From: Candidatus Wolfebacteria bacterium GW2011_GWB1_47_1 | Lineage (GTDB): Bacteria; Patescibacteriota; Minisyncoccia; UBA6257; UBA9933 | Length of the DNA: 64,000 nucleotides | Reading direction: 5' to 3' | NCBI GenBank assembly: GCA_001029635.1 | Contig: CP011209.1 | Span: 157,352 to 221,351 of the forward strand | Shown here: positions 3,540 to 49,075 of the stretch, piece after piece | Position numbering within the stretch: the first letter of the stretch is position 1 | Layout: every line of letters starts with the position of its first letter | Program-made: the position numbers and the translations under genes | The notes under the pieces: model-generated | Database searches by the model: none | The model's input: only the letters and a program-made list of their open reading frames with translations | Told to the model about the DNA's origin: nothing

Positions 3540-3881
3540 TTAGACGAGCTTGGTTAACGCTTCCCTCAACTCCTCCTCGATAACCTCCTTCGGACGGTAG
3601 CCTACAAAGCTTGCCACAACCTGCCCATTTTTAAACAACTGCATATTAGGAATACTTTGGATGTGATATTCCGCGGCGATCTCGTGCGAGGTCGGCTCAT
3701 CCACATTCAACTTTGCGACTTTCACCTGATCGCCCATATCATGCGCGATAGCATCGAGGATAGGACCCATCATAATGCACGGACCGCACCACGGCGCCCA
3801 AAAATCAACAAGTACCGGCAGTGTCGATTCCAACACCTCCTCCTTAAAATTTTCAAATGTTACTTCGATTGGTTTTTTCAT
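3540..3881 (-). CDS. trxA: Thioredoxin
   Basis: WAPWCGPC active site, 113 aa. Confidence 0.9.
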   Translation of the reverse strand: MKKPIEVTFENFKEEVLESTLPVLVDFWAPWCGPCIMMGPILDAIAHDMGDQVKVAKLNVDEPTSHEIAAEYHIQSIPNMQLFKNGQVVASFVGYRPKEVIEEELREALTKLV

Positions 3882-4355: not shown

Positions 4356-4429
4356 GCACTCGTAGCTCAATTGGTTAGAGCACCCGCCTGTCACGCGGGA
4401 GGTTACCGGTTCGAGCCCGGCCGAGTGCG
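4356..4429 (+). tRNA. tRNA-Asp (GTC)
   Basis: Canonical cloverleaf; anticodon loop CTGTCAC; acceptor GCACTCG/CGAGTGC; discriminator G; CCA not encoded. Confidence 0.9.
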
Positions 4430-4446
4430 CATTGAATGTTACTAGC

Positions 4447-5250: not shown

Positions 5251-5799
5251 TTAGGTCTCGATAAGAAATCGCTCCCTATCTCGGACACTGACCTTATGCA
5301 CGCTTGCATTGAATGCATCGTCCATCGTGCATTCAAGTCGTTCGCATAGCGATTCAAGTGCTCGAATCGCATTCCCGAGCTTTATCTCAACGGTCAGAAT
5401 GGAAAGAAGTTGAGACGTGTTATTCGCTCCATACCGAACATCCACCTCTTCGATAAGCTGTCCGGCGCAGGCGTGCAATCTGGCATGCAATGAAAGGGGT
5501 GAGTGATTACGGGACGCATGCGTCTGTAGTGTGCCAATCCAATAAGCGCGATCGAGATTATACCCGTTCGCGTTGGCAAAGCAAACCAGTGTATAGAGGA
5601 CGTCTCCGATTTCTTCAACGACATCACCTTCCGGCTCATTCCACCGCTTCCGCTTGTCCCCGTGCAGATGATTGATCTCACGGGCAACTTCGCCTATCTC
5701 CTCGGATAGACGAGCCATGATCGAAAGCGGCGTCCAGTAACCCCACTGGAGAGACTGAAACAGTTCCTCAATCTTGCGTTGATATGATTGGTATCTCAT
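5251..5799 (-). CDS. MazG-family nucleoside triphosphate pyrophosphohydrolase
   Basis: MazG EE/EExxD-like helices: LSEEIGEVAREI, EEIGDVLYTLV. Confidence 0.65.
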   Translation of the reverse strand: MRYQSYQRKIEELFQSLQWGYWTPLSIMARLSEEIGEVAREINHLHGDKRKRWNEPEGDVVEEIGDVLYTLVCFANANGYNLDRAYWIGTLQTHASRNHSPLSLHARLHACAGQLIEEVDVRYGANNTSQLLSILTVEIKLGNAIRALESLCERLECTMDDAFNASVHKVSVRDRERFLIET

Positions 5800-7269: not shown

Positions 7270-7345
7270 GGTGGGCCTGTCCAGATTCGAACTGGAGACC
7301 TCTACAATGTCAATGTAGCGCTCTAACCAACTGAGCTACAGGCCC
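7270..7345 (-). tRNA. tRNA-Val (GAC)
   Basis: Reverse complement is GGGCCTGTAGCTCAGTTGGTTAGAGCGCTACATTGACATTGTAGAGGTCTCCAGTTCGAATCTGGACAGGCCCACC, a canonical cloverleaf. Confidence 0.88.
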
Positions 7346-7360
7346 ATGTACACAACTAAC

Positions 7361-7434
7361 GGTGGGCGTGGAAGGAATCGGACCTTCGACCTCTGTCTTA
7401 TCAGGACAGCGTTCTACCACTGAACTACACGCCC
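7361..7434 (-). tRNA. tRNA-Ile (GAT)
   Basis: Reverse complement is GGGCGTGTAGTTCAGTGGTAGAACGCTGTCCTGATAAGACAGAGGTCGAAGGTCCGATTCCTTCCACGCCCACC. The anticodon loop CTGATAA is canonical, but the T-loop reads TCCGATT (C at position 55), which is unusual. Confidence 0.8.
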
Positions 7435-9299: not shown

Positions 9300-11306
9300 A
9301 TGAAACTCGTTATCGTTGAGTCTCCAACAAAAGCAAAGACTATCTCAAAATTTTTAGGAAAGGGGTATCAGATCGAATCTTCCTTTGGCCACATTCGCGA
9401 CCTTCCGAAGAGCAAGCTTGCAATCGATATCGAGCATGACTTTGAACCGAGCTACATCATCCCGGTAAAGGCAAAAAAACGAGTTACGCAGCTAAAAAAG
9501 GACGCCGCAAAGGCAGACATCGTCATCCTCGCATCCGACGAAGACCGCGAAGGAGAGGCAATCGCGCATCACTTGACCGAAGCGCTTAAACTGACGGATC
9601 GCCCGGCAAGCCAAGTGCAAAGAATCACGTTTCATGAAATCACCAAGACTGCGATCGAAGAAGCGCTCAAGCATCCGCGCACGATCAACGAAGACCTCGT
9701 ATATGCACAGCAGGCACGACGCGTACTCGACCGCTTGGTTGGATATAAGCTCTCCCCCTTCCTTTGGGAAAAGGTTATGAAGCGCCTCTCTGCGGGCCGC
9801 GTGCAATCGGTAGCGCTCCGTCTTATTTGTGATCGCGAGGACGAGATTAAAAAATTTATTGCGGAAGAATATTGGACCATTTCTGCACTATTCAAAAAAG
9901 AACGTAGCGAAACGGCAATCGAAACTAATCTTGTCTCTATCGACAAAAAAACGCTAGCGAAATTTGACATCCCAGACAAGGAACTGGCCAACGCTCTCAA
10001 GAAGCAGTTAAACGAATCAATCTTCTCGGTCGCAAAGATCGAAGAAAAAGAATCACACAAGAATCCACTGGCACCGTTTACAACCAGCACGCTGCAACAG
10101 GAAGGCAGCAAGAAGCTGCGCTATTCCGCAAAGCAGACCATGGCGATCGCGCAAGGTCTGTATGAAAAGGGATTGATCACCTATATGCGTACCGACTCGG
10201 TAAACCTTTCAAAGGAATCCTTGGATGGCGCAAAAAGTTGGATCATTGAACACCTTGGAGTGCAATATGCGACAGATGCACCACGCACCTTTAAGACAAA
10301 ATCAAAGCTTGCCCAGGAAGCGCACGAGGCCATTCGCCCGACAAACCCATCGCTCACCCCTGAACTCTTCCAAGTAGACGACGATCCGAAGGCAAAGAAA
10401 TTGTACGAGTTGATTTGGCGGCGCTTTATCGCATCGCAGTTACCACAAGCGGTCTTCAAGACAACATCATTCGATATCGAAGGCACTAACGAAAAGGCAC
10501 ATAAAACATTTGGCCTCCGCACAAGCGTGACCATGACGACATTTGATGGCTTTCAAAAGATCATGCCATCTGGAGCGGAAGAAAAGGTAATGCCAAGGCT
10601 GATCGAAGGAGAAACGTTAGAAGCGGAAAAAATCATCCCGGTTCAACACTTCACCGAACCACCAGCACGCTACGACGAAGCAAGTCTCATTAAAATACTT
10701 GAAGAATACGGCATCGGCCGCCCTTCAACGTACGCGCCGACTATCTCAACCATCCAGGCGCGCAACTACGTCGAGAAGACCGACCAACGACGCTTCAAGC
10801 CGACCGAAATCGGCGAAGCGGTAAACGAGATGCTAGTCGCCCATTTTCCACAAATCGTAGATGTGCAGTTTACCGCAAAGATGGAAGATGAGTTCGACGA
10901 GGTCGCCGAAGGTCACAAAAAATGGTCGGATGTGATCAGAACCTTCTACGTCCCCTTCGAAAAAAACCTCGAACAAAAAATGAAGGAGGTTCCCAAGATC
11001 GAACGCGCGTTAGAAGTCTCGGATGAGCTCTGCGAAAAATGTGGCAAACAAATGCTCATCAAATACAGCCGCTTTGGAAAATTTCTCGCCTGTTCGGGAT
11101 TCCCCGAATGCAGGAACACAAAAAAGATCCTAACCGAGGAAGAAAGGCTGCTCGGCAAATGCCCCACATGCAAAGAAGGGGACATCATCAAGCGAAAATC
11201 AAAACGCGGTCGCGCATTCTACGGATGCTCACGCTACCCAGATTGTGATTACGCCTCCTGGAAGAAGCCAGGCGAAAAAGAAGAGGGTGACGACACTATT
11301 GAGTAA
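9300..11306 (+). CDS. topA: DNA topoisomerase I (compact, 668 aa, C-terminal zinc ribbons)
   Basis: TOPRIM MKLVIVESPTKAKTI...EGEAIAHH; catalytic Tyr region GLITYMRTDS; C-terminal C4 ribbons CEKCGK...CSGFPEC and CPTCKEG...CSRYPDC. Confidence 0.9.
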   Translation: MKLVIVESPTKAKTISKFLGKGYQIESSFGHIRDLPKSKLAIDIEHDFEPSYIIPVKAKKRVTQLKKDAAKADIVILASDEDREGEAIAHHLTEALKLTDRPASQVQRITFHEITKTAIEEALKHPRTINEDLVYAQQARRVLDRLVGYKLSPFLWEKVMKRLSAGRVQSVALRLICDREDEIKKFIAEEYWTISALFKKERSETAIETNLVSIDKKTLAKFDIPDKELANALKKQLNESIFSVAKIEEKESHKNPLAPFTTSTLQQEGSKKLRYSAKQTMAIAQGLYEKGLITYMRTDSVNLSKESLDGAKSWIIEHLGVQYATDAPRTFKTKSKLAQEAHEAIRPTNPSLTPELFQVDDDPKAKKLYELIWRRFIASQLPQAVFKTTSFDIEGTNEKAHKTFGLRTSVTMTTFDGFQKIMPSGAEEKVMPRLIEGETLEAEKIIPVQHFTEPPARYDEASLIKILEEYGIGRPSTYAPTISTIQARNYVEKTDQRRFKPTEIGEAVNEMLVAHFPQIVDVQFTAKMEDEFDEVAEGHKKWSDVIRTFYVPFEKNLEQKMKEVPKIERALEVSDELCEKCGKQMLIKYSRFGKFLACSGFPECRNTKKILTEEERLLGKCPTCKEGDIIKRKSKRGRAFYGCSRYPDCDYASWKKPGEKEEGDDTIE

Positions 11307-11307
11307 T

Positions 11308-11340
11308 AAAAAGGCGACCCGATGGGGTCGCTTTTGTTTC
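11308..11340 (+). terminator. Terminator after topA
   Basis: AAAAAGGCGACCCGATGGGGTCGCTTTTGTTT. Confidence 0.6.
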
Positions 11341-11367
11341 TGCTCCAGACTGGAGCCTATTGGATCA

Positions 11368-11643
11368 TCAGCAAAGATCATAGCAGTCGCAGTCGATCAT
11401 GGAGCTCCAAGGTTTCTTGGGGCACAGCTTCTCGTGATACTCGAACATTGCTTGGGTGGTGACGAACCAGTCGCCACAATGCGGGCATTTGCGCTGCTTG
11501 CGCTCGGTCGCCCCAGGACGCTGCGAACATTCGGCATGTTCGTGTCGCTGCATGGCGGCGGTGAAGCATATCGCTCGGAAAATCTTGCACCACGAACAGG
11601 TGCGGCCAAGTACGCTAAGCCGAACATCTTTAAGACTCCTCAT
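11368..11643 (-). CDS. Small protein with two C2HC/C2H2-like zinc-finger motifs (91 aa)
   Basis: MRSLKDV...CSWC-x14-HEHAEC...CPHC-x13-HEKLC. Strong RBS AGGAGG 6 nt upstream. Its ATG overlaps the last codons of the upstream gene. Confidence 0.5.
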   Translation of the reverse strand: MRSLKDVRLSVLGRTCSWCKIFRAICFTAAMQRHEHAECSQRPGATERKQRKCPHCGDWFVTTQAMFEYHEKLCPKKPWSSMIDCDCYDLC

Positions 11644-12007
11644 CGCCTTCCTCCTTCTCGGGCAGATGGCCGACCAGATGTTCTTCGGTAGTCTGTATTG
11701 AGCGATCGATATGCTCGGCAAAGGCACGCAACTGGGCCGAAATGACCCCGCCTGACTGCTTGATGGAATCGATCTTTGTTGCAAGATCAGCTCCTAATAT
11801 GACGCCGGCAGCAGCCATCGTGTGTGCGCGAATAGTTTCACCATAGAAGCGATCTATCCGTTTGTCGAGAAGTTTTAACTCCTCCATCGCGACACGCTCT
11901 TCTGCCATCGTGTCCTGTTGAAAAACGCTTCCTTTGGCGGTTACCATGGGGCTTTTTTGGCCACGATAGTGCCCAACCCCCTTGCAACTATCCGGACATC
12001 CTGGCAT
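11630..12007 (-). CDS. Hypothetical protein (125 aa)
   Basis: RBS GGGAGG 6 nt before the ATG at 12007; no recognisable domain. The overlapping + strand ORF 11245..11691 is rejected. Confidence 0.5.
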   Translation of the reverse strand: MPGCPDSCKGVGHYRGQKSPMVTAKGSVFQQDTMAEERVAMEELKLLDKRIDRFYGETIRAHTMAAAGVILGADLATKIDSIKQSGGVISAQLRAFAEHIDRSIQTTEEHLVGHLPEKEEGDEES

Positions 12008-12249
12008 ACGATACCTCCCTATATTATTGTGAAATGGACTGCTAATATAGTAGTACCACTGAAGGGTATATTTGTCAAAAAAACAGCCCGAAGGCTGCTT
12101 GGTTTAGGCTGCGCATCCGGGAGGGCCCGGTCATTAGAGGGGACCTTGTCGCCCTCCATCCCTATGTTTCCTCCTGCCGCGGACAGGAAAAACGGAAACG
12201 GTCTAGGCGCCCCCGGATGCACATTTGTTGTGTTTCCAAAAAGATCTGG

Positions 12250-12333
12250 TGTACCCCGACAGGGCTTGAACCTGCACGAGACTGCTCTCACTCGATGGTA
12301 ATCGAGCGCGTCTACCAATTCCGCCACGGGGAC
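12250..12333 (-). tRNA. tRNA-like gene, type II (Leu-type D-arm, long variable arm); anticodon arm non-canonical, so possible pseudogene or variant
   Basis: Reverse complement ...TGGCGGAATTGGTAGACGCG...GGTTCAAGCCCTG..ACCA. The anticodon region CTCGA-TTACCA-TCGAG gives a 6-nt loop, and the acceptor stem has mismatches. Confidence 0.45.
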
Positions 12334-12345
12334 AGAAAATCTTTT

Positions 12346-12426
12346 TGGTCGGAGTGAGTGGGTTCGAACCACCGACCTTCGCTGGGATCATCCATACGAT
12401 GCGCTACCGGGCTGCGCTACACTCCG
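12346..12426 (-). tRNA. tRNA-like gene (Pro-type D-arm, GGTGGTTCGAACCCACT T-arm, CCA encoded); no canonical anticodon stem-loop could be drawn
   Basis: Reverse complement CGGAGTGTAGCGCAGCCCGGTAGCGCA-TCGTATGGATGATCCCAGCGA-AGGTCGGTGGTTCGAACCCACTCACTCCGACCA. The region between the D- and T-arms is 4 nt too long and fits no 5-bp/7-nt anticodon arm. Confidence 0.4.
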
Positions 12427-12463
12427 ACACAATCGTTAAATCTAAAAAGTTTTGTTCCGAAAC

Positions 12464-12540
12464 TGGCGCGCGAGGCAGGACTCGAACCCGCGACCTCAAT
12501 CCGTGAAGGATTGCGCTCTACTCGACTGAGCTACTCGCAC
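12464..12540 (-). tRNA. tRNA with a canonical cloverleaf whose anticodon loop CTTCACG places TCA (UCA) at positions 34-36; discriminator G, CCA encoded
   Basis: Reverse complement GTGCGAG-TA-GCTC-AGTCGAGTA-GAGC-G-CAATC-CTTCACG-GATTG-AGGTC-GCGGG-TTCGAGT-CCTGC-CTCGCGC-G-CCA. Position 37 would be C, which is atypical. Confidence 0.5.
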
Positions 12541-12795
12541 GCAAATTTGGTGAAGGTGTGAGGAATTGCACCTCCAGCGAACCCAATAAAGGCCCGTCCA
12601 ATAATTTGCACCCTCAAACTTTGAGTTTATACAAAGAGCTACTACCCGCAACATGAAGGGGATGTGCTTTTAAGCTACAATCCCGAAGGTTATGGTCCTA
12701 CTGGGCACACCCATCTCCTCCATGTCTTGGAAAGTAATACCATACTCCATTACGGATCCTTTGTCAACGGAATATTCTAGAATAGTTTCGTTCTA

Positions 12796-12940
12796 TGCGA
12801 GCCCGTAAAAATGGTGGCCAAGATGGGTGTAGGGAATTTCCCCAGAAACCGAAGGTCGGGGTCCCGTCAGCAAGACGGGCAATCCTTCGGTTTTGTGAGA
12901 AATTTTCAAATCCATCCGCCATTTTTACTTCGGCTCGCGA
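12796..12940. repeat. Copy B of the roughly 143-bp TIR/hairpin element (associated GTAC palindrome at 13104-13123)
   Basis: TIRs tGCGAGCccGTAAAAATGGtGG and CCgCCATTTTTACttcgGCTCGCga; apex CCCGTC-AGCAA-GACGGG; the long stem shows compensatory changes relative to copy A. Confidence 0.7.
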
Positions 12941-13154
12941 TTTGAGCCTTGGCGTTGTGACTGGGGTCGTTGCTAGCGAGTACCCGAGCGTGCAACGCGA
13001 CGGAATGCAGGGCGCGCATCATTCTTTCGCGCGCGCTGCCTAGTGATCCTGCAACGTGCCGGCATGTCGGCGTAGTATATGTTTTTACACAAAGCCGACG
13101 GCCGTACTTTATTAAAAAAGTACGAAAAGATGAGCCCCGCATCCGCAGGAATGA

Positions 13155-16716: not shown

Positions 16717-18498
16717 ATGAATAAGACCCATAGTATGCACGATTTTAAAAAAGCCACGTTTGAAAATCTAATCAAGACGATCGAATATCGTCGCAAGCTT
16801 CCCGATATCGAAATAGAACTTTTGCAAAAGGCTTTTTTGACCGCACAAAAAGCACACGAGCCCCAAAAACGCAGCTCGGGGGAACCATACTTTAATCACG
16901 TATTTCAGACTGCAATCAAGCTTGCAGAATGGGGACTCGACACATCCACCATCTCGGCAGGATTACTGCACGACACGGTGGAAGATACATCATACAAACT
17001 GGAAGCGCTCAAGAAAGACTTCGGCGACGAGATCGCCTTTTTGGTCAACGGAGTTACCAAGTTGGGACACCTTAAATACCGGACTTCTCCTCAGACAGAA
17101 AAGGAACGCATGGAGCAAGCTGCAGAAAACTTGCGTAAGATGATTCTGGCAATCAGCGAAGACCTTCGCGTGGTCTTTATTAAACTCGCAGACCGTCTCC
17201 ATAATATGAAGACGCTCGGAGCTGTACCCCCCCAAAAACAAAAGCGTATCGCTTTGGAAACTCTCGAAATCTATGCTCCGCTTGCATACCGCCTCGGCAT
17301 GCAAGGACTGTCAGGAGAGCTCGAAGATATTACCTTTATGTATCTGCATCCCGAAGAATATAGATGGATGACGGAGCACGTGAAGGAGCAGTACGATGAG
17401 CGAGTTCAGTATCTCGAAGCAGTTGAGATACTTCTCCGCGAAGCGCTCAAGAAGGCTGGTATCACCCCGGTGAAGATAGATTACCGGGCGAAGCGCATCT
17501 CAAGTTTATATAAGAAATTATTGCGGGCAAACATGAGCCTTGAGCAAATCTACGATCTCGTCGCCCTGCGTGTTATTGTAAACACGATCGAAGATTGTTA
17601 TACCGCACTCGGGATCGTGCACCAAATATGGCCGCCACTACCGGGCCGCATTAAGGACTATATCGCATTACCAAAACCGAACGGGTATAAGAGCCTGCAT
17701 ACGACAGTATTTTGTGAGGACAAAAAAATAACCGAAATCCAAATCCGCACATTACAAATGCACGAAGAAGCAGAAAACGGAATTGCGGCACACTGGGCAT
17801 ATAGCCAAGCAAAGACCTCCAAGAATTTCATGGAGGGTAATAAAAACGTGACAGCAAACCAAGCAGACATTGCCTGGGTACAGCAACTGCGTAATTGGCA
17901 AAAGGATTTCACCGACCCGGAAGAATTTCTGCATTCGCTAAAAATTGATTTCTTCAAACATCGCGTATTCGCGATCACTCCAAAAGGAGAAGTGATCGAT
18001 CTCCCTGCCGGATCGACGCCGATCGATTTCGCATACCAGATTCATAGCGAGATAGGAGATCATTGTGTCGGCGCGAAAGTAAACGACAAGATGGTTTCTT
18101 TGGATTATCAGATCCAGTCAGGAGACCTTGTTGATATATTAGTACAAAAGAACAAAAAGCCTTCCGAGTCATGGCTGCAATTCGCAAAAACAGCGAGCGC
18201 AAAGTCAAAGATTCGCACCAATCTTAAAAAAGAAACTTCGTTTATGCGCAAAGCTCGCCAGCTCGAGCTACGCATCACTGCAGCCGATCGCGTAGGACTA
18301 ATCAAAGATCTATCTGCCGTCATATCTCGAGCGCGCGTCAACATTCTTAACCTTACCCATATCAGCCCCGCGCAAAAGACATCATTCCCTATTATCAAAA
18401 TAATTTGTGATATTGATAATAGGGAAAAGACCGAGAAGCTTATTCTAAAATTAAAGGGGGTAACGGGGGTTAAAGAAATCCATCATCAGATGATCTGA
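16717..18498 (+). CDS. rsh: Bifunctional (p)ppGpp synthetase/hydrolase RelA/SpoT homolog (RSH)
   Basis: HD domain HD motif LLHDTVEDT, synthetase domain (RIKDYIALPKPNGYKSLHTTV), TGS and C-terminal ACT-like region. TGA stop immediately followed by a terminator. Confidence 0.9.
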   Translation: MNKTHSMHDFKKATFENLIKTIEYRRKLPDIEIELLQKAFLTAQKAHEPQKRSSGEPYFNHVFQTAIKLAEWGLDTSTISAGLLHDTVEDTSYKLEALKKDFGDEIAFLVNGVTKLGHLKYRTSPQTEKERMEQAAENLRKMILAISEDLRVVFIKLADRLHNMKTLGAVPPQKQKRIALETLEIYAPLAYRLGMQGLSGELEDITFMYLHPEEYRWMTEHVKEQYDERVQYLEAVEILLREALKKAGITPVKIDYRAKRISSLYKKLLRANMSLEQIYDLVALRVIVNTIEDCYTALGIVHQIWPPLPGRIKDYIALPKPNGYKSLHTTVFCEDKKITEIQIRTLQMHEEAENGIAAHWAYSQAKTSKNFMEGNKNVTANQADIAWVQQLRNWQKDFTDPEEFLHSLKIDFFKHRVFAITPKGEVIDLPAGSTPIDFAYQIHSEIGDHCVGAKVNDKMVSLDYQIQSGDLVDILVQKNKKPSESWLQFAKTASAKSKIRTNLKKETSFMRKARQLELRITAADRVGLIKDLSAVISRARVNILNLTHISPAQKTSFPIIKIICDIDNREKTEKLILKLKGVTGVKEIHHQMI

Positions 18499-18499
18499 C

Positions 18500-18530
18500 A
18501 AAGAGAAGCGTTATGCGCTTCTCTTTGTCA
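18500..18530 (+). terminator. Terminator after the RSH gene
   Basis: AAAGAGAAGCGTTATGCGCTTCTCTTTGTC. Confidence 0.65.
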
Positions 18531-18629
18531 TTTTAAAAAGGTATGCTCTAGGTGCGTGATCAATCCAATTATGTTCGCATAGTAAGAAAAATTATGTACA
18601 ATATATGAAAACACTTCGCATATAAATGA

Positions 18630-18807
18630 GTTACGCAAAATGTCGTTCGGCTTCACTCCATTTTTCGTAACGTGGAGCTTTGCGAGGGTTGGGCTTCCTC
18701 TCTTCCCTATCGGGACAAGTAAACAAGCCTCGCACCACATCGCCTAACAACCGCTTGGCGGCGTCCGCCCAAATCCCGCTCCGCGGGACTTCGCAAAGCT
18801 CCACGTT
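18630..18807. repeat. Cassette-associated repeat copy 1: hairpin module, left IR AACGTGGAGCTTTGCGAGG (18669-18687), 40-bp core in orientation A (18688-18727), right IR interrupted by a 57-bp insertion
   Basis: Shares more than 60 bp with copies 2 and 3. The core is the exact reverse complement of the core in copy 2. Confidence 0.75.
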
Positions 18808-18841
18808 ATACGCAATTCTTTAAAACCTTAGCGCCATTAAG

Positions 18842-19465
18842 ATGAAAATATTCAAAAATGGATTAATAACAGGTCTGCTTCTTCAGTTGGCGGTAGGGCC
18901 TGTCTTTTTCTTTATTGTAAATTTAACGTTGCAAAAAACAATTCTCGACGGTTTTGTTGCGGTTTTTGCGGTGACATTGGTCGATTATTTGTACATCACG
19001 CTTGCAATTTTAGGGATTGGAAAATTGTTCGAAAAAAAGAAAGTTAAAAGAATTTTCAGTATAGTCAGTTCTATAGTCCTTATGATATTTGGCGTTATTT
19101 TAATTAAAGGAATTTTGGGAAGTAATATTTCAATAAACGTAGCTACTGATTCAAAAAATCTTCTAACAAGTTTTACCTCTGTTTTTTTTCTCACAATTTC
19201 CAGCCCCATGACAATAGTTTTCTTTACTAGTCTTTTCACCGCAAAAACCGTTCAATATAACTATGCAAAACGAGAATTGGTTATTTTTGGTTTTGCAACT
19301 GGCCTGGCAACATTTATATTCCTGGGGTTAACTGTCTTTTTATCCTCTTTAATCAAAGGAAATATTCCTATGTTATTAATCCAATTTTTGAATGCATTAG
19401 TTGGATGCTTACTAATTGGTTATGGAGCGGTAAGACTGAGAACGGTTTTAAAGAACAGCGTATAA
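18842..19465 (+). CDS. LysE/RhtB-family amino-acid exporter (AT-rich cassette gene)
   Basis: N-terminal LITGLLLQLAVGPVFF matches the LysE family signature; about 6 TM segments; codon usage is AT-rich compared with its neighbours. Confidence 0.7.
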   Translation: MKIFKNGLITGLLLQLAVGPVFFFIVNLTLQKTILDGFVAVFAVTLVDYLYITLAILGIGKLFEKKKVKRIFSIVSSIVLMIFGVILIKGILGSNISINVATDSKNLLTSFTSVFFLTISSPMTIVFFTSLFTAKTVQYNYAKRELVIFGFATGLATFIFLGLTVFLSSLIKGNIPMLLIQFLNALVGCLLIGYGAVRLRTVLKNSV

Positions 19466-19696
19466 CAAAGAATATCTGGTTCAAAATTTTCATATCAAGT
19501 ATAATAAAAAAGGAGTGTGAAAATTTCTCGACCCAAATTTTTCTTTCGCTGCTACAGAAAAACTTCAGATATTCTTAACGTTACGCAAAATGTCGTTCGG
19601 CTTCACTCCATTTTTCGTAACGTGGAGCTTTGCGAGGCTTGTTTACTTGTCCCGATAGGGAAGAGAGGAAGCCCAACCCTCGCAAAGCTCCACGTT
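19466..19696. repeat. Cassette-associated repeat copy 2 (full length): upstream module ACAAAGAATATCTGG..., hairpin module, perfect 19-bp IRs (19619-19637 and 19678-19696) flanking the 40-bp core in orientation B (19638-19677)
   Basis: AACGTGGAGCTTTGCGAGG-[CTTGTTTACTTGTCCCGATAGGGAAGAGAGGAAGCCCAAC]-CCTCGCAAAGCTCCACGTT. Confidence 0.8.
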
Positions 19697-19761
19697 AGCT
19701 GAAATAATCAAAATTTTTATCTTTATTAATAATAATTATCTGGGGCTTTTTTATTTTTTCT

Positions 19762-20301
19762 ATGCATGATTTAGCACTTCCATTTATACTTTCACAAGTT
19801 GCGATGTTCATCGCAATGGGCTTTGATTTTCTGAGTCTGCAATATAAAAAACGTGAGCATACATTTTTATGCCTAATTGTTTCGGCTAGTTTGATAAGCG
19901 CCCATTATTTTTTATTGAATAAAACAGCGGCTGGTGTTATTGTTTCGATTTCGGTTCTTCGATTTATTACTTGCTATTTTACAACGAATAAAAAATACTT
20001 GTTTATATTTATTGCGCTAAACACGATTTCATTATTTTTCACATATAAAGATCCTACCGATTTAATTATCTATATTGGCTTGATTATATTTATTATCGGT
20101 AATTTTCAGGAAGATAATCGGCTGATGAGAAAATTGATGATGGGTGGAACATCCTTGATTGTGGTGTATAATGCAGTTATCTTCTCACCGATGGGAGTTA
20201 TCGCTGAGGGCGTATTTTTGATTAGTGGTTTCATCGGCTATTATCGTCATTATGTGAAAAATAATGAAAAAATAAAAAAGCCCCAGATAATTATAGAATA
20301 A
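19762..20301 (+). CDS. YgjV-like inner-membrane protein (AT-rich cassette gene)
   Basis: Several TM helices in 179 aa; a weak resemblance to the YgjV family; very AT-rich. Confidence 0.45.
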   Translation: MHDLALPFILSQVAMFIAMGFDFLSLQYKKREHTFLCLIVSASLISAHYFLLNKTAAGVIVSISVLRFITCYFTTNKKYLFIFIALNTISLFFTYKDPTDLIIYIGLIIFIIGNFQEDNRLMRKLMMGGTSLIVVYNAVIFSPMGVIAEGVFLISGFIGYYRHYVKNNEKIKKPQIIIE

Positions 20302-20317
20302 GGAATATAAAAATTTA

Positions 20318-20496
20318 GATTACATCAGCTAACAAAGAATATCTGGCTCAAAAATTTTTCACTTTTACATTTTCAGATGAAAGAAAAATTTTCTCGACCC
20401 AAATTCATTTCCGCTACGCTTCAATGAACTTCAGATATTCTTAACGTTACGCAAAATGTCGTTCGGCTTCACTCCATTTTTCGTAACGTGGAGCTT
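20318..20496. repeat. Cassette-associated repeat copy 3 (truncated after the left IR)
   Basis: ACAAAGAATATCTGGCTCAAAAA...CTTCAGATATTCTTAACGTTACGCAAAATGTCGTTCGGCTTCACTCCATTTTTCGTAACGTGGAGCTTTT, then diverges. Confidence 0.7.
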
Positions 20497-20673
20497 TTTT
20501 GAAATTTTTTAGAACAAGAATGACGTCCTCCCCGCACTCCCATCCTCTACTCTTTCCACGACGGAATGGATCGTGCGGGGTTTCCTGGTAAGGTAGTAAA
20601 AAAAGGCGGCAAAATTTTGTCGTCCCGGGACTTAAAACTCTCTAAAATGATTGCGTATGTTTAGCTCGTGTGA

Positions 20674-20946
20674 TTAATCAGCCAACAAATCAACACGGAA
20701 AACTATATTGCAATCGCAACTACCGCCATTCTCATCGAAGTACTTAAGAGTGGCTTCGATATCGACGTTTCCCATTTTTTCGAGTATCTCTTTTGCTAGA
20801 GATCTTTCCTTGAAATGATCACAACTCCAGGTGGCATCATCGGAGTCTGCTCTTTTTCTAAAGTGGCAACCATCTGGTCCTGACAGCTGACTTACAAATT
20901 CATCCCAACGAGGATTGTCAATGTTCATAATTTCCATGTCTAGCAC
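20674..20946 (-). CDS. Hypothetical small Cys-containing protein (90 aa)
   Basis: ORF with Cys/His residues (CHF, CDH, CDC); no confident family assignment. Confidence 0.4.
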   Translation of the reverse strand: MLDMEIMNIDNPRWDEFVSQLSGPDGCHFRKRADSDDATWSCDHFKERSLAKEILEKMGNVDIEATLKYFDENGGSCDCNIVFRVDLLAD

Positions 20947-21099
20947 CTCCCTTTGCCGAAATTTGACATATGTTGTAGAAATATTAATTTTTTAGTTAAA
21001 CACCAAAAAAGATATAAATCAAGTCAAACATATACAAAAATAGAAGAAATTTCAAAAGGGTTTGGAAATAAGGGGGGGGTTAGGTACCTTTAAATTTAA

Positions 21100-21140
21100 A
21101 AAACGCACGGTCTTATGAATAAGACTGTGCGTTTTTATTT
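21100..21140. terminator. Hairpin terminator downstream of rnpA
   Basis: AAAACGCACGGTCTTATGAATAAGACTGTGCGTTTT. Confidence 0.55.
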
Positions 21141-21458
21141 CGCAAACTCAAATTCCTTTATTATTTGCTTAATATCTCCCTTAGTAAACTGTTTAGTCTC
21201 TGGATAAATAAGGATCATCACGTCTTGCCCTTCACTGTTTTGTAGATTTCGCCCCCGAATACCTTCATAAAACATTCTCTTGATTTTATTTCGCTCCGTT
21301 GCCCGCTTATCTACCTTCTTCCCCACTACAACACCAAAACGGCTATATGAAAGCCCATTTGGTACATATTTTACCGCAAAAAAAGGGCCTTTCTTTACAA
21401 AAGTAGGCCTTTTTTTGATAAATTCAGCAATATTAAGCTTGAATTTCTTTGCAAGCAT
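21135..21458 (-). CDS. rnpA: Ribonuclease P protein component
   Basis: Basic 107-aa protein; conserved RNR motif region KRATERNKIKRMFYEGIRG; sits next to rpmH. Confidence 0.8.
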   Translation of the reverse strand: MLAKKFKLNIAEFIKKRPTFVKKGPFFAVKYVPNGLSYSRFGVVVGKKVDKRATERNKIKRMFYEGIRGRNLQNSEGQDVMILIYPETKQFTKGDIKQIIKEFEFAK

Positions 21459-21465
21459 TAGATCT

Positions 21466-21600
21466 AATCAGCGAAGAACGCATTTAGTTAAGTGAAGTGC
21501 TAGGCGCGGGAAGGTTAGCGCGAAAGCCGTATTATTTATACGGCGACCAAGCTGACAGGGGCCCGCAACACCGCAATTCGCCAACTAAATGCGTTCTTTT
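21466..21600. repeat. Copy Y of a conserved roughly 85-nt structured element (core 21489-21576) enclosed by an 18-bp inverted repeat, in the rpmH-rnpA spacer
   Basis: Core GCTAGGCGCGGGAAGG...GAAAGCCGTATTATTTATACGGCGACCAAGCTGACAGGGGCCCGCAACACCGCAATTCGC matches the element at 34538-34620. Flanks GAAGAACGCATTTAGTT and AACTAAATGCGTTCTT. Confidence 0.6.
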
Positions 21601-21746
21601 TAAGAAGCTTTTTTGACCGTAAGCTGCTTCCGTCCCTTTCGGCGACGTGCCAAAAGTACGCGTCGTCCACCCGGGGTCGAAGTACGCTCCAAAAACCCGT
21701 GGGTTCGCGCTCTTTTTCGCTTGTTTGGTTGGTATGTGACTGACAT
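21600..21746 (-). CDS. rpmH: 50S ribosomal protein L34
   Basis: Translation [48 protein letters not shown]. It is not in the ORF track because it is under 60 aa. Confidence 0.85.
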
Positions 21747-21804
21747 AATGGTCTACTATATCGGAATTAGTTAGAAAATGCAAGGGGGTATTCTCTTTCT
21801 GAAT

Positions 21805-21975
21805 CCTGCAGCAAGCTATAAAAAGTGGGCAAAAATGATTGAAGAAAATTTCTCTTAAAATCGAGAATTTGGGACCCGTTTATTAACGGGTAATTCTCGA
21901 TTTTTTAGAAATTTTAAAGATCATTCCACTTTTTATCCCGCTTGCAGGCTTTTGCGTACTTTTCTAGAAAAGTAC
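21805..21975. repeat. Copy D of the roughly 143-bp TIR/hairpin element (21805-21948) plus the GTAC palindrome (21956-21975), inside the oriC region
   Basis: TIRs CCTGCAGCAAGCtATAAAAAGTGG and CCACTTTTTATcCCGCTTGCAGG; apex CCCGTT-TATT-AACGGG (compensatory relative to A and B). Confidence 0.7.
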
Positions 21976-22034
21976 ATAAAAACTCTTTTTGAATATGTTC
22001 TCGACGAGTATTGCATCTGCCCGATGAGACAATT

Positions 22035-22150
22035 TGTGGATATGTGGATAATTCTCGGTATAACTCTTTTTACTTTCACTTTTAGCCTATTTTTAATAAA
22101 ACCAAGTTCAAAAAACCCTTTATTTATGCGGGTCATATGAGTTATCCACA
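22035..22150. promoter_or_regulatory. oriC part 1: DnaA boxes upstream of dnaA (TGTGGATA-TGTGGATAA at 22035-22051; TTATCCACA at 22142-22150) with an AT-rich stretch between them
   Basis: Perfect consensus TTATCCACA boxes in the rpmH-dnaA intergenic region; the gene order rnpA-rpmH-dnaA-dnaN is the classical origin context. Confidence 0.7.
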
Positions 22151-22259
22151 CCTATTCCCCATTTTTTTACTTTTCCACACTATTCGCTATAATTTTATAA
22201 ATCTGTATAATGATTTTTAGTAACACATAGAGAAGTGTGTTGTCGTTATTTCTTACACC

Positions 22260-23627
22260 ATGGAACTCGATCAACTCTGGAAATCCGCTCTTGCTGAGCT
22301 TGAAATACAAATGACCCAGCCGAACTTTTTAACCTGGTTTAAAAACAGTCGACTTATCGATCGATCCGCCGAAGGAGAACTTGTAGTATCCCTTTCAAAT
22401 AATTTTGCAAAAGAATGGGTTGAAAATAAATACCATAAATCAATTCTTGAAATTCTTATCTCTTTGGATGACTCCGTGAGGCGCGTTCGGTATACGGTTG
22501 CCATTCTCCCAACGGAACCTCAAAAACCCCTCACAGATAGCAAAAAAGAGCGTTCCGGGGCTCCTCAGCAGGCTACGTTTGATGAATTCAAAATCGATCC
22601 AGAGACAAATCTCCACCCAAAATACACGTTTAAGTCATATATAGTGGGTTCTTCAAACGAATTAGCATATGCTGCTTCCCTCGCCGTTATTAAGGATATG
22701 GGGAAAAAGTACAATCCACTGTTTATTTATGGAGGATCGGGTCTTGGAAAGACCCATTTAATGCAATCTATTGGTAATCAAATTCGCCAGACCCATGGAA
22801 ATACCACAAAAGTAAAATATATTCCTTCCGAAAAATTCGTAAATGACATTGTATTTTCCATTAAAAACAAAAGAATGGAGGATATGAAGCGCATCTACCG
22901 CTCGGTAGATGTACTCATTATTGACGATATCCAATTTATCGCCGGAAAGGCAGCGAGTGAAGAAGAATTTTTTCACACGTTTAATGCCCTGTATGATAAT
23001 GATAAACAAATAATACTTTCATCCGATCGCCCTCCTCATGAAACTGCCATACTTGAAGAGCGCCTTCGTTCCCGCTTTAGTAGCGGAATGATCGTGGATA
23101 TTTCTTATCCGGACTATGAAATGCGCCTTGCTATCATTAAAAAGAAGCTTGAGCAGGAAAATATATCCATTCCTGATTCGGTTACCGAATTTATTGCCGA
23201 AAAGATGCAGCGTAATATTCGTGAGATAGAAGGAGTCTTGAAAAAGATCATGTTTTATCAGGATGTGAAAGGAGTTGAGGTGACTCGGGGAATAGTGGAG
23301 GAAATCATTGATAAAACGACGAAGCATTCCTTTAAAAATGTAACACCAAATCAGGTTATGCAAGTCGTTGCCAATTTCTTCGAACTTGCCGAAAAGGACC
23401 TAACCGACCAAGGAAGAAGAAAGGAGGTTGTTGAGCCGCGCCAGATCGCAATGTATTTAATGAAAGATCTCCTGGGGATGTCCTACTCGGATATCGGGTA
23501 TAAGATGGGGAAAAGAGATCATTCAACCGTTATGCACGCATGTGATAAAATCTCGACATTACTCACAACCGACCAGAAGTTGGGTAATAAACTTACTTCG
23601 ATTAAGGAAGTTATCAACAGTAAATAA
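22260..23627 (+). CDS. dnaA: Chromosomal replication initiator DnaA
   Basis: AAA+ Walker A GGSGLGKTHLMQ, Walker B LIIDDIQF, sensor and C-terminal DNA-binding domain (DIGYKMGKRDHSTVMHA). Confidence 0.92.
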   Translation: MELDQLWKSALAELEIQMTQPNFLTWFKNSRLIDRSAEGELVVSLSNNFAKEWVENKYHKSILEILISLDDSVRRVRYTVAILPTEPQKPLTDSKKERSGAPQQATFDEFKIDPETNLHPKYTFKSYIVGSSNELAYAASLAVIKDMGKKYNPLFIYGGSGLGKTHLMQSIGNQIRQTHGNTTKVKYIPSEKFVNDIVFSIKNKRMEDMKRIYRSVDVLIIDDIQFIAGKAASEEEFFHTFNALYDNDKQIILSSDRPPHETAILEERLRSRFSSGMIVDISYPDYEMRLAIIKKKLEQENISIPDSVTEFIAEKMQRNIREIEGVLKKIMFYQDVKGVEVTRGIVEEIIDKTTKHSFKNVTPNQVMQVVANFFELAEKDLTDQGRRKEVVEPRQIAMYLMKDLLGMSYSDIGYKMGKRDHSTVMHACDKISTLLTTDQKLGNKLTSIKEVINSK

Positions 23628-23641
23628 TATTCATCCCGTTG

Positions 23642-23771
23642 TTATCCGCAAAAATAAATTCTAAAAAAGCGCTTGCCTAAAAGCAATTTACCACTTATCC
23701 ACACTATCCACACCCCTATAACTACTTCTACTATTTTTATTAATACTATAGAAGAACAGGGATGCGGATAA
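23642..23771. promoter_or_regulatory. oriC part 2: DnaA-box cluster between dnaA and dnaN (TTATCCGCA 23642-23650, TTATCCACA 23696-23704, TATCCACA 23705-23712, TGCGGATAA 23763-23771)
   Basis: At least four boxes within 130 bp, suggesting a bipartite origin flanking dnaA. Confidence 0.65.
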
Positions 23772-23793
23772 CATCCTAAACAGAAATTTACCT

Positions 23794-24912
23794 ATGGAAC
23801 TCATTGTACTGAAAACGAACCTCAAGGAAGGGATTGCTGCACTCGGAAAGATCGGATCTGAAAATGCATCATTGCCGATCCTTAAAAATTGCCTAATTGA
23901 AACGCAAGAGAATAAGATAAAGTTTTCAGTAACTAATTTGGAAGTGGCAATATCGAGTGTTATTCCGGCGAAGGTAGTAAAAGATGGTAGTATCACAGTT
24001 CCACTAAGTATCCTCTCCTCTATTATTAATAACCTTGAGAGTGAGCGGGTAAGTTTGGAAACAAAGGTAAATAATCTGGTAATAAAGACGGAAAACTATC
24101 AGGCGAAAATACAAGGAACAAAAAAGGAGGAATTTCCGATCATTCCAAAGATCGGAAACGAAAGTGAATATCTAGAGATAGAAAGCGGATTATTAAAAGA
24201 CGGCCTTCTCTCGATAATCAATGCGAGTCAAGGTTCGGCAATTCGACCGGAACTGGGAGGTATCTTGTTTGACTATCAAGTGAATATTATAAAGTTTGCC
24301 GCAACGGACAGCTTTAGACTTGCTGAAAAGACTATTGATGAGAATCAATATAAGACAAACATCGAACAGAAATTAAAAACGATCATACCGCTAAAAACTA
24401 TTCAGGAGTTGGTGCGGGTGATGTCTGAGAAAGATGACGAAAAGATACAAATTTACTTTGATCAGAGCCAGGTATTATTCCGAACCGATAAATTTGAGCT
24501 GGTATCAAGAGTGATCAACGGAGAATTTCCTGATTATCAACCGATTATCCCGAAAGAGACTGTTATCGAAGTGGTGGTAAACCGGGAGCAGCTAGTGAGT
24601 GCGCTAAAATTAACAGGTTCGTTTTCTGATAAGATGAATGAGGTTAGGATGATCATTAAAGATGGAGTAAAAAATATCGAATTATTCTCATCAAACCCAA
24701 TATTGGGAGAAAACCAATACTTAATACCGGCGAAGATCAAAGGTGATTCGATCGAGATTGTCTTTAACTGGAAGTTTCTCTTTGATGGAATGAAAAGTAT
24801 CACAACAGAAAATATTACCATCGGATTAAATGGGGATAATAAGCCCGCAATTATTAGACCAATGAACGCAAAGGATTATTTTTATATAATCATGCCGATT
24901 AATAATACATAA
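23794..24912 (+). CDS. dnaN: DNA polymerase III beta sliding clamp
   Basis: 372 aa with a three-domain clamp pattern; N-terminal MELIVLKTNLKEGI. Confidence 0.88.
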   Translation: MELIVLKTNLKEGIAALGKIGSENASLPILKNCLIETQENKIKFSVTNLEVAISSVIPAKVVKDGSITVPLSILSSIINNLESERVSLETKVNNLVIKTENYQAKIQGTKKEEFPIIPKIGNESEYLEIESGLLKDGLLSIINASQGSAIRPELGGILFDYQVNIIKFAATDSFRLAEKTIDENQYKTNIEQKLKTIIPLKTIQELVRVMSEKDDEKIQIYFDQSQVLFRTDKFELVSRVINGEFPDYQPIIPKETVIEVVVNREQLVSALKLTGSFSDKMNEVRMIIKDGVKNIELFSSNPILGENQYLIPAKIKGDSIEIVFNWKFLFDGMKSITTENITIGLNGDNKPAIIRPMNAKDYFYIIMPINNT

Positions 24913-25044
24913 GAGCTATGAGGTTAGAGGTCGGAGATTGGAGTTATGAGATATAAGAGGTATGAAAAGTATTTATACCCCTTATCTCTAATTTCTAACC
25001 TCCGATCTCATATCTCCATCCTCATATCACACAACAAAAAAACA

Positions 25045-25075
25045 ACTCTGTAAAAAATCTCCCGCTAAGGGAGAT
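25045..25075. terminator. Bidirectional terminator between dnaN and the PBP gene
   Basis: AAAAATCTCCCGCTAAGGGAGATTTTTTG, a perfect hairpin. Confidence 0.65.
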
Positions 25076-25094
25076 TTTTTGTGTAAACGATATT

Positions 25095-27194: not shown

Positions 27195-27415
27195 AAGAGA
27201 AAGAGGATCAGATGGATATTACACAATAAAAAATTTATAAAGTCAATAATAATAAAGAGGAGGAAAAGAAGGATTGTCTAAGGTTAATTGTACCTGAAAT
27301 AAACAAACAAAAAAACCGACGTATATCCTGTAGTGGTTTTCAACTTAATTAAATTTGCCATAGGCAAACCGTTGAAAATCTACTACAGGACAAGGCGGTT
27401 TTTCTATATACTCTA

Positions 27416-27646
27416 TTAGAGATCCCCTTCTTCTTCGTCTCCCCATTCGAAATCTGCAAATTCGTCGATCTCATCCTCGCTTCCGACGACATCATCTTCT
27501 TCCGGCTCGGCCTCAAAACCATAGCCGACATGATCATCGGCAACCTTCTTCTTCGGGGTTTCGATATCCTCATCCCCTATCTCAAAGATAAGATCTTCAC
27601 TCTCAACATAATTCTGAACAGGTGTGGCAACACGTTGGTGTGTCAT
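27416..27646 (-). CDS. Small highly acidic protein (76 aa), hypothetical
   Basis: More than 35% D/E residues; ORF upstream of the PBP gene on the same strand. Confidence 0.35.
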   Translation of the reverse strand: MTHQRVATPVQNYVESEDLIFEIGDEDIETPKKKVADDHVGYGFEAEPEEDDVVGSEDEIDEFADFEWGDEEEGDL

Positions 27647-27902
27647 TTAAAATTGCTGGTTGTGTAAAAGTAATAAAATATGACCTTTATTTGAGATACA
27701 TAGTAATGGATTTTAAATAACTGTCAACTGTTTTAAAAGTAAGGTAGTAAAGGATTAAAAAATAAGCAATTAATTAGCAAAAGCGTAAAGTTGTCACAAA
27801 GAGGAGAATAGGTATAATGTGGGTAAAGAAGAAATGTGGGGCTGTATATATACACGGTGCACATTTGTATATTTGTTCGATTTGTATGTTTGTGATTACC
27901 CT

Positions 27903-34122: not shown

Positions 34123-34196
34123 GGGTGATTAGCTCAGTTGGTTAGAGCACCTCGTTTACACCGAGGGGGTCGGGGGTTCGAATCCCTCATCACCCA
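34123..34196 (+). tRNA. tRNA-Val (TAC)
   Basis: GGGTGATTAGCTCAGTTGGTTAGAGCACCTCGTTTACACCGAGGGGGTCGGGGGTTCGAATCCCTCATCACCCA, canonical. Confidence 0.9.
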
Positions 34197-34506
34197 CCCT
34201 TTTCGAAGCATTGCTTCGATTTGGAATAGCCACCGAAATGGAAAATACGTACGGAGCTGATACGGACGTACTAATCATCACGGAGCGGCAAACTACATCG
34301 GGAAACACACGACGACACGAGTAAAAAGAAGTGTCGGAGCAGGTACTGGTGTAGCTGTTTGAAACCCTTTTGGATCATTGCATTCATGGCGAAAGAATCA
34401 CTCCCTTGATTCGATATCATGCGCAAAAATCCGATAAAAGGGATTGTATTCGTGTGTCTAATAATAAAAACCGAATGCGTAATAAATATACGTGTTCGAA
34501 AAATAA

Positions 34507-48864: not shown

Positions 48865-49075
48865 TCTATTGTAGCGTTTAGAGAATTGCATTGTATGTAT
48901 AAGTGTGTGTTTGTTTGAATAGGTTCTTCGTGTGGTATCACTTCGTAGTGGGGCTGGCTGTATATAAATCCCTTGGGGTGACTCCGGGGGTCGACTTCCA
49001 CCGGGGTCCCGATATCGTTTTTTAAAATGCAAAAATTCACTTTTTTGAAAAGTGTTCCGCAGTTCACGTATACGC

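Follow-up and report, generated by a model that had tools for sequence, protein, structure and literature searches.

A candidate stable-RNA operon of tRNA-like modules with non-canonical anticodon arms in Candidatus Wolfebacteria

Non-decoding mimics of transfer RNA (tRNA) are already known, among them transfer-messenger RNA (tmRNA), YrlA and mascRNA, and chromosomal tRNA-derived genes have been diverted from decoding in the case of the Bacillus cereus 'tRNA-Other' and the staphylococcal non-proteinogenic tRNA-Gly. In this study, we analyzed 64,000 nucleotides (nt) of Candidatus Wolfebacteria bacterium GW2011_GWB1_47_1 (contig CP011209.1, positions 157,352 to 221,351), a member of the Patescibacteria or Candidate Phyla Radiation (CPR). 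This whole stretch is referred to as the window, and positions are counted from its first letter. Between topA and ligA it holds three tRNA-like genes, modules A, B and C, which resemble the Bacillus and staphylococcal genes in their origin and differ from them in that those are single genes with a normal 7-nt anticodon loop. On balance, we lean toward reading the trio as the central part of an operon dedicated to stable RNAs, namely tRNA mimics that do not decode. This reading starts from what can be seen directly, namely the anatomy of the unit that contains the modules, its conservation across species, the covariation of the stems, an encoded CCA that is confined to the modules and the lack of a conserved anticodon. 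As far as we found, the multi-module operon form appears new: the literature searched gives no description of a multi-module operon of CCA-encoding, anticodon-less tRNA-like RNAs with normal topology, and no relevant account of tRNA-like RNAs in CPR, Patescibacteria or Wolfebacteria came up in full-text searches.

Three tRNA-like modules and their relatives

An earlier note on this DNA placed three tRNA-like genes at 12250-12540, and they are indeed there, all on the minus strand; in order of transcription its genes 3, 2 and 1 are modules A, B and C (Table 1). The ARAGORN check agrees, reporting 12464-12540 as 'tRNA-SeC (tca)', 12346-12426 as an 81-nt 'tRNA-Ile (gat)' and 12251-12333 as 'tRNA-??? 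(ac)', where the two-base anticodon implies a 6-nt loop. The 'SeC' (selenocysteine, Sec) label of A follows from the UCA triplet alone. Across the window the program finds seven tRNA-type genes, the other four being ordinary (Asp-GTC, Val-GAC, Ile-GAT and Val-TAC). Under the Rfam tRNA model A reaches 51.7, B 47.4 and C 29.4 bits, against 64.6-73.8 bits for the four ordinary tRNAs, and the matches of the trio to tRNA are far beyond chance. Neither ARAGORN nor Rfam reports a tmRNA.

The 7-bp acceptor, T-psi-C-type T-arm and D-arm of a canonical elongator tRNA are found in all three modules, in C with one bulged U, and the canonical anticodon arm (5-bp stem, 7-nt loop, U33 and a purine at 37) is found in none. 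Direct reading of the minus strand bears out the details of the earlier note. Module A is the clean cloverleaf that had been described, with G73, CCA and a loop CUUCACG that puts UCA at 34-36 and C at 37; its acceptor is 7/7 and its T stem 5/5 paired, the T-loop is UUCGAGU, U33 is present and the D-loop lacks GG. A pair between its C32 and G38 is possible, and folding to minimum energy gives a 6-bp stem closed by a 5-nt loop (UUCAC). Module B has a Pro-like body (~76% identity to phage tRNA-Pro genes) with C1:G72, A73 and CCA, a 7/7 acceptor, a 5/5 T stem and the T-loop UUCGAAC; the 21-nt segment seen in place of its 17-nt anticodon arm starts with 4 bp, which a bulge separates from another 3 bp and the 6-nt loop AUGAUC. 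Module C, for which a Leu-type body, a 6-nt anticodon loop and an imperfect acceptor had been claimed, has a type-II Leu-like body whose nucleotides 7-29 (23 nt) are 100% identical to E. coli tRNA-Leu, the loop UUACCA and an acceptor that reaches 7/7 only with the one bulged U, followed by A73-CCA; its variable arm is long, its T stem 5/5 paired and its T-loop UUCAAGC.

To place the trio in a wider context, ligA neighborhoods were compared in a sample of 11 species, in which sets of orthologues are small. LigA identity to the window is 81% in L095, 80% in L097, L099 and L103, 79% in L005 and L006, 77% in L100 and L105, 75% in L101 and 65% in L102. In the species collection, two Wolfebacteria metagenome-assembled genomes (LigA 79%) come closest, and LigA scans of metagenomes and genomes gave no relative closer than 79-81% apart from a genome of the same species. 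The contig of Wolfebacteria GW2011_GWA1_47_6 equals the window across the entire topA-ligA gap, and L094, the window's own species, has an identical gap. Between two and four tRNA-like modules lie on the same strand in the equivalent locus of nine other Wolfebacteria-clade species, in eight of which both flanks are visible (L005, L006, L095, L097, L100, L101, L103 and L105); in L099, whose contig lacks topA, the modules are directly upstream of ligA. All relatives with at least 75% LigA identity have a TTGACA-17-TA...T promoter, a structured leader, 2-4 modules and a terminator, most with a tail RNA. The 231-bp gap of L102 has no module, and in the more distant Candidatus Colwellbacteria L012 (LigA 60%) an analogous unit is found elsewhere near ligA (5455-5700, minus strand), with a TTGACA promoter, a short leader, two CCA-encoding modules, a tail of ~180 nt and a terminator. 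The L012 modules have the loops UUGCCUA and UUAUCAC and D-loops without GG, and ARAGORN labels them Gly-gcc and Asp-atc. Its labels for the relatives' modules are scattered over Asn, Phe, Glu, Val, Gly, Ser, Thr and '???', and it misses the long-armed ones, while the Rfam tRNA model finds most of them at 34-66 bits. Such mislabels (SeC, Ile, Asn, Gly, Val and others) can distort CPR tRNA counts, 'suppressor' calls and inferences about the genetic code.

The catalog of 29 modules was aligned over 35 columns covering the acceptor, T-arm and 3′ end. In the acceptor and T stems 346 of 348 cells are paired (99.4%), and each of the 12 pairs has changed on both sides. The observed values were not attained in any of 500 shuffles, and pairing in slid registers was 44-55%. 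The T-loop reads TTCRANY in 28 of the 29. Orthologue comparisons are stronger evidence than covariation across the catalog, but comprise few sequences. Three Leu-like orthologues have the acceptors GUCCCCG, GCGGAGG and AGUGGGA, all paired (two with one bulge or mismatch), and variable-arm hairpins that are all different; the acceptor and variable-arm helices of the module C orthologues L105_4 (loop UUACCG) and L095_4 (CACACCA) are entirely different and fully paired. Gly-like modules (L005_1, L006_1, L100_1, L101_1, L103_1 and L105_2) combine an invariant GCGGGAU acceptor and U73 with T stems that covary. Of the 29 modules, 25 encode NCCA, against none of eight ordinary tRNAs of the same Wolfebacteria loci (Fisher P = 1.3e-5); these eight are the window's four plus those of L005 and L006 around 1000-1320 and end in ACCT, ACCG, ACCC, GCAT, ACAA, ACAG, ACTT and ACTA. 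In these genomes, an encoded CCA is a simple marker, its presence pointing to a mimic and its absence to a real tRNA.

These observations bear on the proposal, also raised in the earlier note, that the trio are decaying pseudogenes or integration-site remnants, here of a former tRNA operon. The bodies clearly come from Pro-, Leu- and Gly-type tRNAs, the number of modules varies among species, Rfam scores fall below those of ordinary tRNAs and there are a few acceptor mismatches and bulges, as decay would predict. However, the defects are concentrated in one arm, and decay is unlikely since all but two of the stem pairs were spared, with compensatory change, while that arm was remodeled, since CCA was added, in the modules only, and since 10 species (LigA 75-81%) retain the locus together with its promoter and terminator. 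The locus has no integrase or repeat, the window's sole recombinase gene being 45 kb away, and CPR genomes are small and gene-dense. We consequently disfavor this explanation and regard it as improbable. A phage or plasmid origin was also considered and rejected: BLAST of 11900-12900 against phage and plasmid collections gave short tRNA-level matches only, and the flanks are core chromosomal genes.

Anticodon arms across species

In contrast to the upper half, only three of the 29 modules have an anticodon arm of canonical format. Arm lengths range from 13 to ~75 nt; among the other arms, some are closed hairpins, some have a 6-nt loop, and the rest are bulged stem-loops of 19-29 nt or branched inserts of 40-75 nt. 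Within none of the module types is an anticodon conserved. The A-type loops read CUUCACG (UCA) in the window, CUCUCAC (CUC) in L095_2, UUGCUCA (GCU) in L099_1 and UUAUCAC (AUC) in L012_2, and the arms of Pro-like modules carry AUGAUC, UUUACG, UCACCAG, CUAUCA, CUACCA or an insert of ~65 nt. The 21-nt architecture of module B recurs in L105_3, and L095_3 has ~65 nt instead.

Some features of the arms are nevertheless retained. Of the 78 positions compared between L005_2 and L006_2, 17 differ, and none of these is among the 19 positions of the arm (P about 0.002-0.004). The last module before the tail has a 6-nt YUAYCR loop in the window, L105, L101 and L103, and in L095 and L097 its loop is a related one of 7 nt that includes CACC; over seven species this loop motif persists with a Leu-like or a Pro-like body and despite differing stems. 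Judged from these alignments, the arms appear not to be purely neutral. In the Pro-like module at 3578-3669 (minus strand) of L101, an extra hairpin, GAUCUC-UUUG-GAGAUC, lies within the D-loop in addition to the 6-nt loop CUACCA, so remodeling is not always confined to the anticodon arm. The idea that arm loops pair with the 3′ end of 16S ribosomal RNA (rRNA) was tried and dropped: UGAUCC of module B complements GGAUCA, but the other Pro-like modules do not share this motif, and a second ground is the reported lack of the usual CCUCC 16S tail in a Wolfebacteria genome (PMC10783764).

The arms also speak to whether the trio could be genuine decoding tRNAs, with A an opal suppressor or tRNA-Sec and with the unusual loops or short introns of B and C tolerated or removed. 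Module A does present UCA at 34-36 in a 7-nt loop after U33, and unusual introns have been described in tRNA genes of Patescibacteria (PMC13011429). Against this, UGA is a stop codon here, as the earlier note had held in ruling out global recoding: the RSH gene ends in TGA, as do seven of 20 long open reading frames (ORFs). A suppressor or Sec role of A is further contradicted by C37, by the possible Watson-Crick pair 32-38 with a fold closing to a 5-nt loop, by orthologues that read CUC, GCU or AUC in place of UCA and by the 7/5 acceptor/T geometry. The same note had called tRNA-Sec unlikely, and with a 7+5 arrangement, a 4-bp D stem and a 5-nt variable region, A indeed departs from the 8+5 arrangement, 6-bp D stem and long variable arm of that tRNA; none of selA, selB and selD occurs within the window. 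The suppressor-like tRNA that it had left as an option is disfavored. Short introns are unlikely because the inserts lengthen the stem, lack a group I signature and would leave the loop non-canonical, and no anticodon is conserved. A tRNA interrupted by a group I intron, of ~200 nt or more, was rejected as well, given inserts of 4-60 nt and no match to a group I family. We therefore consider decoding to be very improbable, even more so than decay.

The putative transcription unit and possible roles of its modules

Beyond what the earlier note had covered, the trio is part of a non-coding unit of ~660 nt in the topA-ligA gap, running on the minus strand from a promoter at 12767 to a terminator at 12077 (Table 1). 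A perfect TTGACA with a 17-nt spacer is present at the equivalent position in six species with a type-I leader and also in L005, L006, L100 and L101. The leader of ~190 nt is structured and without an ORF, and its 5′ end is identical among the window, L103, L099 and L097. Downstream (3′) of the leader hairpin stands UAGCUCUUUG (12641..12632), which, compared with the published rrn boxA, 5′-UGCUCUUUA-3′ (PMC2724277), shows a 7-8-nt likeness. The core AGCUCUUU (AGUUCUUU in L099) is kept in six species and occurs once in the window. By analogy, the leader motif resembles rrn boxA and may act as such.

Between leader and trio, a degenerate tRNA-like element without a D-arm, 'module 0', has an 8-bp closing stem, two hairpins and ACCA after the 3′ strand; homologues with covarying hairpins occur in L099, L103, L105 and the L097 spacer, and Rfam does not detect it. 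A helix of 10-12 bp brackets module C (RNAduplex -13.6 kcal/mol, z = -5.6 versus shuffles), and an equivalent bracket encloses the last module in L095, L103, L105 and L099, making five species with the window. The tail RNA 'X', of ~115 nt, forms a three-way junction whose consensus fold over the window, L103, L095 and L097 has 40 pairs, 11 of them with compensatory change. Tails are less constant than modules, which are always there: L101 and L105 have essentially none, and L005, L006 and L100 carry a different one. The latter type, tail 'Y' (~220 nt, starting CAGUUUCCCRCYUGGURGYAAGGGCACACU...), is found in some species in place of tail X or ahead of it and has no Rfam match. Every related locus closes with a terminator likewise.

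Only the tRNA family of Rfam matches anywhere in the unit. Known RNAs (5S rRNA, signal recognition particle RNA, 6S, RNase P RNA, GOLLD and ROOL) were rejected for leader and tail with no match even at E up to 10, GOLLD and ROOL having none at the gathering threshold either; the size and three-way junction of the tail are 5S-like, yet the sequence lends no support to such an identity. The tail also contains a small ORF, which is not conserved. Mechanical ORFs of 117-148 amino acids at 11918-12301 (+), 12019-12372 (-) and 11245-11691 (+) overlap the modules or tail and are almost certainly spurious, although some are annotated publicly (L004, L094); gene callers thus put spurious ORFs over this locus.

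Table 1. Coordinates of the modules, the surrounding RNA unit and the ordinary tRNA genes (window positions unless a related locus is named)
Feature	Position	Strand	Basis
Promoter, sigma-70 type, TTGACA-17 nt-TATGGT	12739..12767	minus	promoter scan, 10/12 matches
Leader element 1: 5′ end AUUACUUUCCAAGACAUGGAG, long hairpin, then UAGCUCUUUGUAU (12641..12629)	12625..12732	minus	comparison
Module 0, degenerate tRNA-like, no D-arm	12548..12616	minus	minimum-energy fold
Module A (gene 3)	12540..12464	minus	ARAGORN, Rfam, direct reading, minimum-energy fold
Module B (gene 2)	12426..12346	minus	ARAGORN, Rfam, direct reading, minimum-energy fold
Module C (gene 1)	12333..12247	minus	ARAGORN, Rfam, direct reading, minimum-energy fold
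Helix bracketing module C: CCAAAAAGAU (12348..12339, includes the CCA of B) x AUCUUUUUGG (12245..12236)	12236..12348	minus	RNAduplex
Tail RNA X, ~115 nt, 13-bp closing stem and two hairpins, three-way junction	12110..12223	minus	alignment and consensus fold
Intrinsic terminator AGCAGCCUUCGGGCUGU then U7	12077..12100	minus	sequence and hairpin scan
Ordinary tRNA genes of the window	4356-4430, 7270-7345, 7361-7434, 34123-34198	+, -, -, +	
Tail RNA Y	L005 5415-5640, L006 5340-5560, L100 3470-3675, L097 3050-3175	minus	

In the explanation that we favor, selection would keep the parts that tRNA-handling factors read, namely the 7-bp acceptor, the arm with the UUCRANY T-loop, the D-arm, the discriminator and the encoded CCA, and the anticodon arm would have been remodeled to give a short closed hairpin, a loop of 6 nt or a long hairpin insertion, none of them able to read a codon. 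The upper half of a tRNA is what RNase P, the CCA-adding enzyme, T-loop modification enzymes and EF-Tu recognize. The transcript would be made in the manner of an rRNA or tRNA operon, from a strong consensus promoter and with the boxA-like leader and the module-bracketing helices. RNase P would cut 5′ of each module, and RNase Z would not be expected to cut on the 3′ side, as an encoded CCA is an anti-determinant for this enzyme. The products would be stable non-decoding tRNA-like RNAs, free or joined to flanking RNA, that engage one or more tRNA-binding partners through their upper half, with the rebuilt arm acting as a lineage-specific effector or recognition hairpin. Of the options in the earlier note, a tRNA-derived regulatory RNA fits best: a functional, tRNA-derived non-coding RNA, possibly a regulatory one, is in keeping with the data. 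CPR genomes are among the most reduced of free-standing bacteria, and given this extreme reduction and the consensus promoter, a conserved non-coding locus of 0.5-1 kb is unlikely to be idle.

The same architecture could have a simpler purpose, in which the modules do no more than direct cleavage by RNase P and confer stability, the functional products are the leader and tail RNAs, and the arms are unconstrained filler. The conserved parts are exactly those that RNase P recognizes, the anticodon arm not being among them, and the wide range of arm lengths, the conserved and structured leader and tail, and bracketing helices that are like rRNA processing stalks all agree with this. On the other hand, the tails vary more than the modules that would punctuate them, some arms are more conserved than the rest of their module, with the last-module loop persisting across stems and bodies, and two to four modules are kept although one would be enough for punctuation. 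We judge a role as processing handles alone to be unlikely, though it comes next after tRNA mimicry with an effector arm, which we put somewhat ahead of an even chance.

The encoded CCA and the conserved discriminator raise a further possibility, in which the modules would be charged through acceptor identity and act as aminoacylated carriers outside the ribosome, donating amino acids to non-translational processes (cell wall, N-terminal transfer) or sensing charging, the missing anticodon keeping them off the ribosome. GCGGGAU and U73 are retained in all six clear Gly-like modules, whose T stems covary, as are C1:G72 and A73 in the Pro-like and A73 in the Leu-like modules; by the tRNA identity rules, bacterial leucyl-tRNA synthetase does not read the anticodon. 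However, prolyl- and glycyl-tRNA synthetases normally need anticodon bases 35 and 36, the window has no Fem, MurM or L/F-transferase gene, four modules are without CCA, several have a 3:70 mismatch or bulge, and the encoded CCA, after which comes a spacer, takes part in the bracketing helix with some of its bases. Carriers of this kind are doubtful, more so than processing handles and only a little less so than pseudogenes.

Several points weigh against non-decoding mimicry as a whole. The transcription, processing and stability of the unit are all deduced from sequence. Part of the covariation may be ancestral tRNA diversity and not later selection, as the catalog mixes paralogues from different tRNA types, and the differences in module number and type among species also fit weak or changing constraint. 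The canonical-format loops of L095_1 (GAA), L095_2 (CUC) and L012_2 (AUC) might still decode, and the reading presupposes ordinary tRNA-Pro, tRNA-Leu and tRNA-Gly genes elsewhere in the genome, of which the window was scanned. The boxA-like motif, being of 7-8 nt, could be a relic of a tRNA D-arm (UAGCUC). Finally, Pfam scans of the window show no partner gene nearby, whether Ro60, RtcB, Fem-type or other.

If non-decoding mimicry does hold, a more ambitious version of it can be imagined, in which the whole 0.5-1 kb transcript or pieces of it would form a new CPR-specific ribonucleoprotein or RNA machine, assembled from domains that have the shape of a tRNA, an open CCA end and an arm hairpin particular to the lineage. 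It might be a scaffold to which tRNA-handling enzymes are brought or a set of anticodon-less amino-acid carriers outside translation. We consider such a machine unlikely. Were it real, it would constitute a new functional class of tRNA mimic, kept near the replication origin (oriC) in genomes of ~1 Mb.

Genomic setting and known systems

The unit is flanked by core chromosomal genes, with dprA and topA upstream and ligA, the RSH gene, rnpA, dnaA and dnaN downstream. The rnpA gene (about 21135-21458, minus strand) is ~9 kb from the locus and is followed by dnaA (22260-23627) and dnaN (23794-24912). The cumulative GC skew has its minimum at ~22-24 kb, beside these three genes, and GC content falls to ~38% in 18000-28000. 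The replication origin is likely to be at ~22-24 kb, which would place the RNA unit near oriC. Directly past the operon terminator, a Cys-rich ORF of 125 amino acids (11630-12007, minus strand) has its own promoter; it is syntenic in L099, L103 and L105 at only 14-31% identity, has no Pfam match and is missing from six of the ten species. A type III toxin-antitoxin system, in which an RNA array is followed by a terminator and a small protein, was rejected on these grounds, the ORF having its own promoter, being diverged and being absent from the six species. On the other side, the stretch 12800-13150 between the promoter of the unit and ligA contains a long GC-rich hairpin at ~12845-12895 (AAACCGAAGG...CCUUCGGUUU) and an ORF of 82 amino acids (12795-13043, plus strand) that is called by gene callers and has no Pfam match; this stretch may be another RNA element or a structure of the ligA 5′ untranslated region. 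Further away, a giant ORF of 3157 amino acids (39625-49098, minus strand) with RCC1-like repeats, purple-acid-phosphatase N-terminal domains and fibronectin-III domains probably encodes a surface protein of a kind common in episymbiotic CPR bacteria.

Among described systems, the group I intron tRNAs of Patescibacteria (PMC13011429) come from the same phylum, have insertions in the anticodon loop and are likewise missed or mis-called by standard tools. They differ in that self-splicing introns at 35/36 restore tRNA-Asn and tRNA-Asp, whereas the short hairpins described here restore no anticodon. MALAT1-mascRNA and the tRNA punctuation of mitochondrial transcripts share with the modules a tRNA-shaped element within a longer transcript, which RNase P would recognize and for which the anticodon arm is dispensable in that role. 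These systems are eukaryotic or organellar and consist of single modules, in contrast to arrays of two to four with an encoded CCA and signs of constraint on the arm.

The layout of the unit is similar to that of rrn-type operons, which also have a consensus promoter, a leader hairpin followed by a boxA (UGCUCUUUA, PMC2724277, against AGCUCUUU here), several structured RNAs on one transcript, spacer helices and a terminal intrinsic terminator. Here, however, there is no rRNA, the tRNA-shaped members cannot decode, and the roles of boxA and RNase III would be assigned by analogy. YrlA (RF02553), which is bound by Ro60/Rsr, parallels the modules as a non-decoding copy of the acceptor, T and D architecture in which a tRNA-like domain is joined to another module. 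It is circularly permuted, ends at the position of the anticodon stem and has a loop-capped acceptor, while the modules have normal topology and an open acceptor with CCA; moreover, YrlA has a Ro-binding stem and adjoins rsr, and the window has no TROVE/Ro60 gene. A Y RNA at the locus was rejected, as the RF02553 match of 23.1 bits is below the gathering threshold of 69, extends from the T-arm of A into the D-arm of B and has the wrong topology. If the modules are functional tRNA mimics, they would add a bacterial class beside tmRNA and Y RNA and offer a target for transcriptomics in the few cultivable CPR systems.

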